A DNA stretch of 64,000 nucleotides from Octopus vulgaris. Its lineage: Eukaryota. The stretch is taken from assembly GCA_951406725.2 (NCBI GenBank), contig OX597829.1, positions 6,262,001 through 6,326,000 on the forward strand, written 5' to 3'. This document shows positions 8,027 to 12,805 of the stretch, one piece after another. The translations under genes were made by a program, and so were the position numbers. The notes under the pieces were generated by a model, which made no database searches, was not told the origin of the DNA, and was given only the letters and a program-made list of their open reading frames with translations. Every line of letters begins with the position of its first letter. Positions within the stretch are counted from its first letter, which is position 1.

Positions 8027-9612
8027 ATATAGTAAAAATATTGTAGAGAATTGCCGAAGCGAAAAGAGGAACCTGAGTATGGCATGGATTGGCGACAGGA
8101 AGCCTTTTCAAAGTGGAACACACGTCTCTTTCTAAACCATAGTAATAGGTTGAGCTAAACTAACAACTTCAACATCAAACGAGGCATCTTTCAAGCCGAC
8201 ACACTCTCCCCATTACTCTTTTGCATGACATTGATCCCACTCACAAACAAACTAAATACCCAGGTATGGGGCCAAAGTGTACAATACATCAATAGACCAT
8301 CTGTTTTATATGGACGATCTGAAGCTGTTCGCTAGAAACGACGAAGAGCTATCAGGGCTGCTAACAGCTGTTAAAGAATTCAGTAATGACATAAAGTTGG
8401 ACTTTGGCCTTCATAAGTGTGCTTAAGCAACTTTTATAGGAGGCAAGCTCAAGGAAACAGCTTTCTTTAAATTAGATACCGACACTACCATCAAGGAGCT
8501 TGACCCAGAAGAATTTTACAAATACCAAGAGATAAATGAATGTGGTGGTATACAATATGCTACCATGAAAGAAAAAATAAGACAGGAATATAACTGGAGA
8601 ATTAGACTCATACTAAAATCTGAACTCAATACTAAAACTCGCATCGAAGTCATTAACAACCTAGGATTTCCAGTAGTCCAATATAATTTTAACATCAGTA
8701 ACTGGAATCTTACAGAGATTCAAAGCCTGGACAGGAGGACAAGAAAACTACTAACATCTAAGAACATGCACCACCCAAAAGTAGATGTTGATCTTCTGTA
8801 CCTAACTAGAAGTAACGGGGGAAGGGGAATGTGCTTTTAGACCTCCACAATAACAATGGACAGATACTTATTCAGTACAGGACGTTGCGACTTGTGTGCA
8901 AACACGAGAGCAGCAAAAGATCACATTTTATTGTCAAGGAAGCTTGCAAATTCGCAAGGGAATTTGGCATTAATCCTGAAATATTTGAAGAACCTGAAAC
9001 CACTGCCAGAAAACAAACAATAGGGATCAATCAGACTGCAAAAAAGAACTAACAGAAACAAATTGAGAAGCCTCTAGTTAGATATCATACACTTCGAAGT
9101 CGAAATGCTGATGTAGATCAAGCAACAACCCATCAGAAACTGGAGGTTTCATATTGGCGGTACATGATCAAAGCTTGCTCATAAAAAAAAGACTACAGGC
9201 CTAACGTTCTTCAAAACGGTTCTGACCCTAAATGCAGATTATGCGAGACATTTGACGAAACAATAGTCCATCTCGTTTCGGGATATCCTGCGCTGACACC
9301 AAACGAATACAAAAATCAACACGATAGGATAGGAGAGTATTTACATAGGAACACTATACTACAAAATCAGCACGCCTGCTTATTGGTATGAACATCATCC
9401 TGAGCCAGCCTTTCAAGACAGAAATGTTACGATCCTCTGGGATTCTCCACTCAACAGTGACAGAACAATCCAGGTTAATCGACCAGGCATAATCATTAAA
9501 GATAGGGAAGAAAATACTTGTAGACTAAAAGATGTAAGTTTTGCCACTAACAAAAATATACCCGTCAAGGAATTTGACAAACTAAGAAAATATAAGGACC
9601 CGGAAAATGAAC
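8027..9612 (+). mobile_element. R4/Dong-like LINE, RT to RLE fragment (degenerate)
   Basis: NLSMAWI, RGIFQADTLSPLLFC, HLFYMDDLKLF (tatatggacgat ~8308), FGLHKC, KIRQEYNWRIRLILKSELN, MHHPKVDVDLLY..RSNGGRG, CRLC..HD, ILWD, KYKD; multiple frameshifts. Confidence 0.92.
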
Positions 9613-9666
9613 ATTATTTACATTATTTACATTTGACGGATATTTGTCCTCATCTTGTTTGTTGTT

Positions 9667-9713
9667 AACACAACGTTTCGGCTGATATACACTCCAGAAC
9701 TTCATTAGTTGTC
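9667..9713 (-). ncRNA. Degenerate minimal type-I hammerhead motif
   Basis: Minus: GACAA-CTAATGA-agttctg...cagcc-GAAA-CG-TT-GTGTT; G5A core change, stem II partly decayed. Confidence 0.6.
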
Positions 9714-9763
9714 TTGGAGAAATTTCGAACTGAGTTTTCATTCCTGAGGTATTTTTTTCGATG

Positions 9764-9769
<6 letters not shown>

Positions 9770-9826
<57 letters not shown>

Positions 9827-9870
9827 CATCATCATCATCATCATCCTCATCATCATCATCATTATTATTA

Positions 9871-9907
<37 letters not shown>

Positions 9908-10014
9908 CATCCTCCTCCTCCTCCTCCTCCTCCTCCTCATCATCATCATCATCATCATCATCATCACCATCATCACCATCATCATCATCATCATCGTCGT
10001 CGTCGTTGTTGTTG

Positions 10015-10051
<37 letters not shown>

Positions 10052-10056
10052 CATTA
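9770..10056. repeat. Compound (TTA)(TCA)(TCC)(TCG)(TTG) microsatellite
   Basis: Directly visible. Confidence 0.97.
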
Positions 10057-10222
10057 TTCAGGTCTCTGCTGGGAATCGAACTCGGAAACTCGGTGTTGGT
10101 GTTGGAAGTGGTAGTGAGAGAGATGGAGGTGTTGATGGCGGTGGTCACTGGATAGTGAAAAGTGTATATTTAAAAATTGAATTAAGTTTTTTTTTATATA
10201 ACACCTAGATATAGAAATACAC

Positions 10223-10332: not shown

Positions 10333-10489
10333 CTTATAGAATAAATGGAAAAGAATATTTATTTTATGAGTGCTGTGTGTATGAAATTGTTTATAAATTG
10401 TATAAAGTGCATTGCGTAATCATCATATTCCGATTTCTGCCACTTTCCAGTGAATAGCAGATGAGCGACTACCTTTTGATACAGACACA

Positions 10490-12805
<2,316 letters not shown>

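Follow-up and report, generated by a model that had tools for sequence, protein, structure and literature searches.

A repeat copy on the minus strand of the window, the 64,000-nucleotide stretch of octopus DNA analysed here, is very probably a 5'-truncated, decayed solo pseudo-LTR (pLTR) of an abundant protein-coding Penelope-like element (PLE). That the repeat family as such is the pLTR of a PLE is almost certain. Its unusual trait is that the pLTR begins with a tRNA-like sequence that likely acts as a promoter, so that lone ends of the element look and spread like SINEs. The first-pass annotation had read the copy as a possible tRNA-headed SINE that captured the pLTR and hammerhead ribozyme of a PLE, an unusual SINE/retrozyme hybrid processed by self-cleavage or mobilised by a PLE reverse transcriptase (RT).

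The copy in the window

The B-box (GAGTTCGATTCC, minus strand 10083-10072, by sequence inspection), the trinucleotide array and the minimal hammerhead-like motif all lie on the minus strand where the first-pass annotation had placed them (Table 1), and its description of the copy as degenerate was borne out. The first 33 nt of the head are gone, leaving the copy without an A-box, and the hammerhead carries the G5A change: it reads CTAATGA at 9708-9702, together with CAGCC-GAAA-CG-TT-GTGTT on the same strand, and cleavage is predicted between 9672 and 9671. Compared with the family, the motif is altered at core G5 (9706), stem I (9709), stem II (9699 and 9698) and loop 2 (9691). At 11 positions, core G5, stem I and stem II included, the tail departs from the majority sequence of 29 further family copies, and the predicted fold of the window copy does not contain the helices formed by an intact copy; judged from these changes, the hammerhead is likely inactive. 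One nucleotide missing near 9730 and one inserted at 9698 disturb the ORF frame. The copy has no inverted partner, and no target-site duplication (TSD) was seen by eye. It is probably dead, and by itself this fragment is of no special interest. The 9-bp tandem tail reported earlier stands insofar as the unit occurs twice; it is not a SINE-type tail but a polymorphism of the family, present at 47/113 family loci and also in the 5' pLTRs of L112, L116 and L125.

The surroundings are AT-rich, with many microsatellites. Decayed fragments encoding a non-LTR RT and a restriction-like endonuclease, which we take to be R4/Dong-like from their motifs, flank the copy in opposite orientations (translations; 8400-9620 on the plus strand and 10340-11400 on the minus strand), and the 3' end of the pLTR copy abuts the coding part of the plus-strand fragment. 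A link between the copy and these LINE fragments was considered and rejected; tblastn with four PLE proteins found nothing in the window.

Table 1. Parts of the repeat copy on the minus strand, in positions of the window
Feature	Position	Strand	Basis
tRNA-like head remnant, corresponding to family head positions 34-75	10059..10100	-	blastn against a natural head of the family
B-box, T54-T55-C56-G57-A58 in tRNA register	10072..10083	-	sequence; register from the family majority
Trinucleotide array, expanded; (AAT)n in the family but mixed AAT/AAC/GAC/GAT/GAG in this copy	9771..10058	-	sequence and TRF
Short leader, from the array to the ORF start	9742..9770	-	sequence
First ~43 codons of the PLE ORF, ATG at 9741-9739	9611..9741	-	frame in L133, L128 and L116
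Minimal type I hammerhead motif	9667..9713	-	sequence, folding and comparison with the family
9-bp in-frame duplication, unit twice	9613..9630	-	variable among family loci; adjoins the short 3' end
3' end of the short type, lacking the optional ~33-bp PLE tail	9611..9612	-	comparison with family copies

A pseudo-LTR of a coding Penelope-like element

In the 2.8 Gb of genome searched, positions 9612-9770 proved to be a high-copy repeat, with 2746 first-look candidates, 40 of which were scored and showed 90-94% identity (self excluded). The intact hammerhead core, as an exact 34-nt word, was counted 1690 times (control, 0) but is kept in only 3/84 arms selected on other parts, and the family is therefore roughly estimated, with wide error, at 10^4 to 10^5 arms. 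The genome-wide co-occurrence of head and ribozyme, on which the first-pass annotation had made its proposal depend, was observed from both sides: the head is present in 22/29 tail-selected copies, and the hammerhead module lies downstream in 26/29 head-selected copies. The family core is CTGATGA, the form for which the first-pass annotation had proposed a test, with both ribozyme boxes intact in 26/29 tail-selected copies and in only 43/84 arms not selected on the ribozyme. Rfam and ARAGORN called neither the tRNA head nor the hammerhead, returning only microsatellite-driven miRNA matches; relaxed ARAGORN matches on heads were discarded, since unrelated loci fire throughout too.

The order of the unit is head, (AAT)n, ATG, hammerhead, two alternative 3' ends, RT, an endonuclease (EN) apparently of the GIY-YIG type, a short 3' UTR, and the next head. 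Endonuclease-like coding sequence stands directly before the head in L030, and a search with this EN stretch alone found the head following in 25/29 other loci, the tail in 24, and either in 28/29 (L048, L057 and L058 among them being near-duplicates). The RT lies upstream of the EN (RVT_1 match, E 1.8e-8). Among 39 long copies selected by the 5' part of the RT, nine carry a pLTR part before the ORF, with head and tail directly before it in L096 and L127 and the tail only in seven more; in L097 and L127 the repeat is found both before and after the ORF. In L133 and L128 the frame that begins at the ATG of the supposed tail continues across hammerhead and tail as far as the element body, and in L116 tail and body share a stop-free frame of 309 codons. 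The first-pass annotation had proposed seeking the tail in PLE or LINE 3' ends; it does lie inside a PLE, but there it is the ORF start, holding the hammerhead, and not a borrowed 3' end.

The RT and EN are 42% and 30% (E 6e-24) identical, respectively, to the 836-aa Anolis protein P0065, and there is also homology to P0095, which carries PF01541. Pfam gave no GIY-YIG match on the family EN, whose assignment to this type is suggested by homology and by motifs. A Cys-rich RT-EN linker is a criterion for placing PLEs in clades; the likeness to P0065 and the lack of such a linker only suggest membership of the Penelope/Poseidon clade. The characters of a PLE found here are an ORF with PLE-type RT and C-terminal EN linked to the repeat, the same repeat on both sides of that ORF and holding its start, an inverted 5' copy with an optional 30-40 bp tail on one side, and a minimal hammerhead in the pLTR.

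The anatomy of insertions was surveyed in 60 loci taken in order from the exact-core list and in the tail- and head-selected sets, 113/119 loci being usable. An inverted part adjoins the copy in 72/112 loci, and the 66 inverted pairs consist of 54 long+short, 6 short-short, 1 long-long and 5 others. The 3' ends form two clusters about 33 nt apart, at about 50-70 and 90-95 nt beyond the cleavage site. TSD-like repeats of 8 bp or more, for which the first-pass annotation had proposed to look, flank 43/75 insertions with defined ends, compared with 2.6% in swapped-flank controls. Such inverted pairs, one-sided tails and TSDs are described as signs of PLEs (available text of PMC8557442 and PMC3846280). 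The mobilisation by a PLE RT suggested earlier agrees with these signs, and there is high confidence that the repeat is mobilised by the RT/EN of this same PLE. Plain snap-back second-strand synthesis was rejected as the source of the inverted pairs, the arms of which end at different sites in 54/66.

PLE sequence was found in 20 listed sequencing runs from 12 studies and seven organisms. Among the listed contigs, those from four runs of four other organisms cover EN, head and tail, and the EN-head junction is bridged in 3/4; the head-PLE fusion is therefore not private to this assembly. No PLE bearing such a tRNA or Pol III head turned up in the literature searched, and the available portions of PMC13282606, PMC6962438 and PMC4824008 mention no such PLE head. 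The search covered open papers and not the repeat databases Repbase, Dfam and SINEBase, and the family may already carry a name.

The tRNA-like head and the transcription of the element

The full head of the family measures 75 nt and, as had been supposed for the consensus, is complete, with an A-box at 8-18, U33 and TTCGA at 54-58 in tRNA register; both boxes are whole in the family majority. Alignment with tRNA genes fetched from the genome gave Arg(TCT) as the best match (50/73 identities, z 7.4 versus shuffles), followed by Arg(TCG) and Ile(AAT), so that Arg or Ile is the best candidate source among the isotypes fetched; the score against the best tRNA, 61.5, is lower than the mean of 70 between real tRNAs of different isotypes. 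The alignment did not single out tRNA-Ile or Thr as the source. Clusters of tRNA-Ile(AAT)-like genes spaced 1-9 kb apart were observed at C4:51993283-52042313 (about 28) and C8:23039298-23067822 (about 7).

Copies pile up at the start of this head. Among 89 copies selected on ribozyme or tail, a count in which L152 wrongly figures as having a head and L184, a long copy, wrongly figures as headless, 66 have the head: 42 end at -17..+12, 10 end inside the head and 14 run into the body. The end rate at the head start, 0.039 per nt versus 0.0025 and at most 0.0021 on the two sides, is about 16 times higher, most ends falling between -8 and +7, at or just 5' of tRNA +1. Genome-wide, 2365 exact head starts were counted, including 478 after a PLE 3' end and 1039 matches after an inverted head, in which palindromes are counted on both strands. 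There is good reason to think that the pile-up marks the 5' end of the RNA. It need not be a Pol III start, because fixed starts and 5' palindromes also occur in pLTRs that have no tRNA head (available text of PMC3846280) and the junction of 3' UTR and head is itself an imperfect hairpin (-12.1 kcal/mol versus -7.9 +/- 2.4 for shuffles). The end of the PLE 3' UTR (L030:1390-1433, family junction) is similar to the reverse complement of the head's first ~16 nt, and the hairpin may be the relic of an old inverted junction that captured the head.

On sequence grounds, the reading that Pol III makes the element RNA, with the A/B-box head as the likely promoter, is somewhat favoured. No T4 run occurs in the 2.5-kb majority map, against 4.6 expected from base shuffles (P 0.006); under Markov controls P rises to 0.08 (order 1) and 0.27 (order 2), and codon shuffles of a 387-codon stretch give no significance (P 0.21-0.29). 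Natural copies have 0.38 T4 runs per kb versus 2.56 in related PLEs, about 7-fold fewer, the comparison set being 57 loci of similar T content out of 80 related PLE loci from metagenomes. Three of these 57 loci have no T4 run either, and G4 runs are likewise absent from the family map. Related PLE ORFs of 1.4-2.3 kb in L232, L236 and L249 also lack T4 runs and show no visible tRNA head; they represent either chance or other terminator-free families. In RNA reads (3 runs of one study in another organism, about 6% read), both strands were equally covered, no pile-up of starts or ends was observed, and depth stepped up at the head, as genomic copy number does; among the listed runs carrying the element, none is RNA. 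A scan for A/B motifs downstream of 42/80 related PLE loci, which recovers only 7/30 positive controls, gave one match, in a separate repeat (L306). This is a head-to-head palindromic pair (L306:1700-1900, on a metagenome contig) of a different tRNA-derived repeat with T runs inside, about 400-560 nt after a truncated PLE ORF, and possibly represents another PLE-mobilised tRNA-headed element. Two further points count against the reading preferred here: uncapped Pol III RNA is hard to translate, and the full head is kept before the ORF in only 2/39 long copies.

The head could instead be a passive relic in a Pol II element, a less probable account that nevertheless carries real weight. A tRNA or SINE head would have been captured once at the ORF-pLTR junction, Pol II RNA would come from read-through or an unseen promoter, and the junction hairpin would stop the RT or trigger fold-back, so that copies start at the head. 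Such a hairpin exists, and rotifer pLTRs with TATA/Inr promoters have 5' palindromes of 18 and 38 bp (available text of PMC3846280); TATA-like motifs, with no tRNA head, were seen by eye between ORF end and hammerhead in the related L232, L245 and L251 (150-450 nt after the ORF), and the T4 depletion is weak under Markov control. However, the ends lie at or just 5' of tRNA +1 and not at the 3' foot of the hairpin, where the RT would first stall, and neither the wholeness of both boxes in the family majority nor the roughly 7-fold scarcity of T4 runs in natural copies relative to related PLEs is in keeping with a passive head. A bolder extension of the Pol III reading appears rather unlikely. 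In it, an autonomous coding PLE would have exchanged a Pol II promoter for one derived from a tRNA and cleared Pol III terminators from 2.5 kb of ORF, so that Pol III would transcribe the whole element through both pLTRs. By internal RT initiation the element would then produce SINEs of its own, and read-through RNA, bearing two hammerheads, may be processed by them for translation or circularisation.

It is improbable that an independent tRNA-headed SINE is amplified from short masters of its own beside the PLE, by the PLE RT in trans. The family does have an A/B-box, tRNA-related head and a dispersed high copy number with TSDs; short copies bear the boxes and TSDs, are about three times as numerous as long ones where a head is present (42 vs 14) and are slightly less diverged (head 5.9% vs 7.6%, a difference confounded by selection), and trans-mobilisation by pLTRs has been described (available text of PMC3846280). 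Yet the same head is integral to the protein-coding PLE, the 3' module is the ORF start, and no column separates 42 short from 54-66 long copies except at ribozyme positions that had played a part in choosing the short set. All variants occur in short and long copies alike, so that the short ones do not form a SINE lineage of their own, a non-autonomous line distinct from its partner and sharing only the 3' end with it, and the proposal of a SINE that captured a PLE end was not supported. Short copies are SINE-like in anatomy and probably also in how they arise: that the unit works like a SINE holds, that it is an independent SINE does not, and solo copies with intact boxes could be secondary sources as a matter of degree. 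Far less probable still is a retrozyme-like cycle, in which the unit would be cut out by hammerhead self-cleavage, circularised and re-inserted. Many copies keep an intact minimal core, two intact copies fold together at -30.6 kcal/mol versus -17.6 for the window copy (which says nothing on the active fold), and a PLE-retrozyme link is in print (available text of 10.64898/2026.07.22.740005). Nevertheless, the self-cleavage and the hybrid nature proposed by the first-pass annotation find no counterpart in the copies, which retain sequence to either side of the cleavage site and have neither end there (1/29 head-selected copies ends near it). In the loci examined, the short unit did not form head-to-tail arrays, apart from one partial tandem tail (L146); the head-to-head pairs place their two ribozymes on opposite strands, and the PLE PAc inserts uncleaved RNA (available text of PMC11167929).

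Under the preferred reading, RNA would start a few nt before tRNA +1, and the element's own RT/EN would nick the target with a stagger of ~9-13 bp. Reverse transcription would begin internally, at either of two sites that lie about 120-165 nt downstream of the ORF start, as for PAc, in which RT was reported to start inside the RNA in vitro, its two start sites explaining the tail (available text of PMC11167929). Copying to the RNA 5' end would yield a SINE-like solo pLTR of 250-600 bp. Should both nicks prime, one per site, as we infer, two cDNAs would be made and likely joined, either at their 5' end, which is self-complementary (GCCC-nn-GGGC), or by microhomology; the products would be head-to-head pairs in which only one side has the tail. 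Long copies would derive from tandem or read-through RNA, and the template RNA would be uncleaved at the hammerhead.

Significance and comparison with known systems

With tens of thousands of copies (a rough estimate) having a mapped 5' boundary, two 3' ends and TSDs, the family offers an in vivo test of the internal-initiation model, and it bears on PLE transcription and on the origin of inverted, one-tailed PLE insertions. If driven by Pol III, it would be a coding retroelement with a SINE-type promoter and an example of how an autonomous element can give rise to a SINE. A caution also follows for repeat libraries, in which some entries taken for "tRNA SINEs" are ends of PLEs.

The following comparisons hold as far as the available text of each source goes. 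The Penelope/Poseidon EN+ PLEs PAc (Poseidon_Ac, PMC11167929) and Adineta Pen2a (PMC3846280) share with the octopus element the RT with C-terminal endonuclease, the pLTR with ORF start and hammerhead, the optional 30-40 bp tail, the inverted pLTR, TSDs of about 8-10 bp and the palindrome at the inverted junction. Unlike in these elements, the octopus pLTR starts with an A/B-box head and an expandable (AAT)n, and its sense strand is nearly T4-free; Pen2a has a TATA/Inr motif (PMC3846280). The minimal type I hammerheads of metazoan PLEs (PMC4209133) show the same lack of helix III beyond a palindromic core, the same extra base between 9 and 10.1, G10.1-C11.1 pair and 5-bp helix I, and the same prevalence of single dispersed motifs from truncated PLEs; the octopus ribozyme, known here from sequence alone, does not differ from them in sequence.

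The pairing of a tRNA with a hammerhead is already in print: Sm-alpha and Sj-alpha of Schistosoma (PMC2770079) are likewise tRNA-derived SINE-like repeats with a hammerhead, in above 10,000 copies. Whereas the available text gives no coding partner holding the whole unit, the octopus unit has one, and the Sm-alpha hammerheads are canonical (PMC4209133) whereas the octopus hammerhead is minimal and lies inside the ORF. The TRIMp3 elements Cassandra, Helenus and Ajax (PMC10886601) likewise carry a small-RNA-derived Pol III promoter in a terminal repeat, for which an origin by SINE or tRNA insertion has been proposed. These LTR elements are non-coding, and their autonomous partners are presumed to use Pol II, whereas the octopus head stands in the coding element's own repeat, and that element is a PLE. 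Non-LTR retrozymes (PMC7229834, 10.64898/2026.07.22.740005) share the type I hammerhead, the relation to PLEs and the 170-400 nt scale; they are defined by ribozyme-cut tandem units and circular RNA, whereas in the octopus loci examined head-to-tail hammerhead units were not found and the ends do not fall at the cleavage site.
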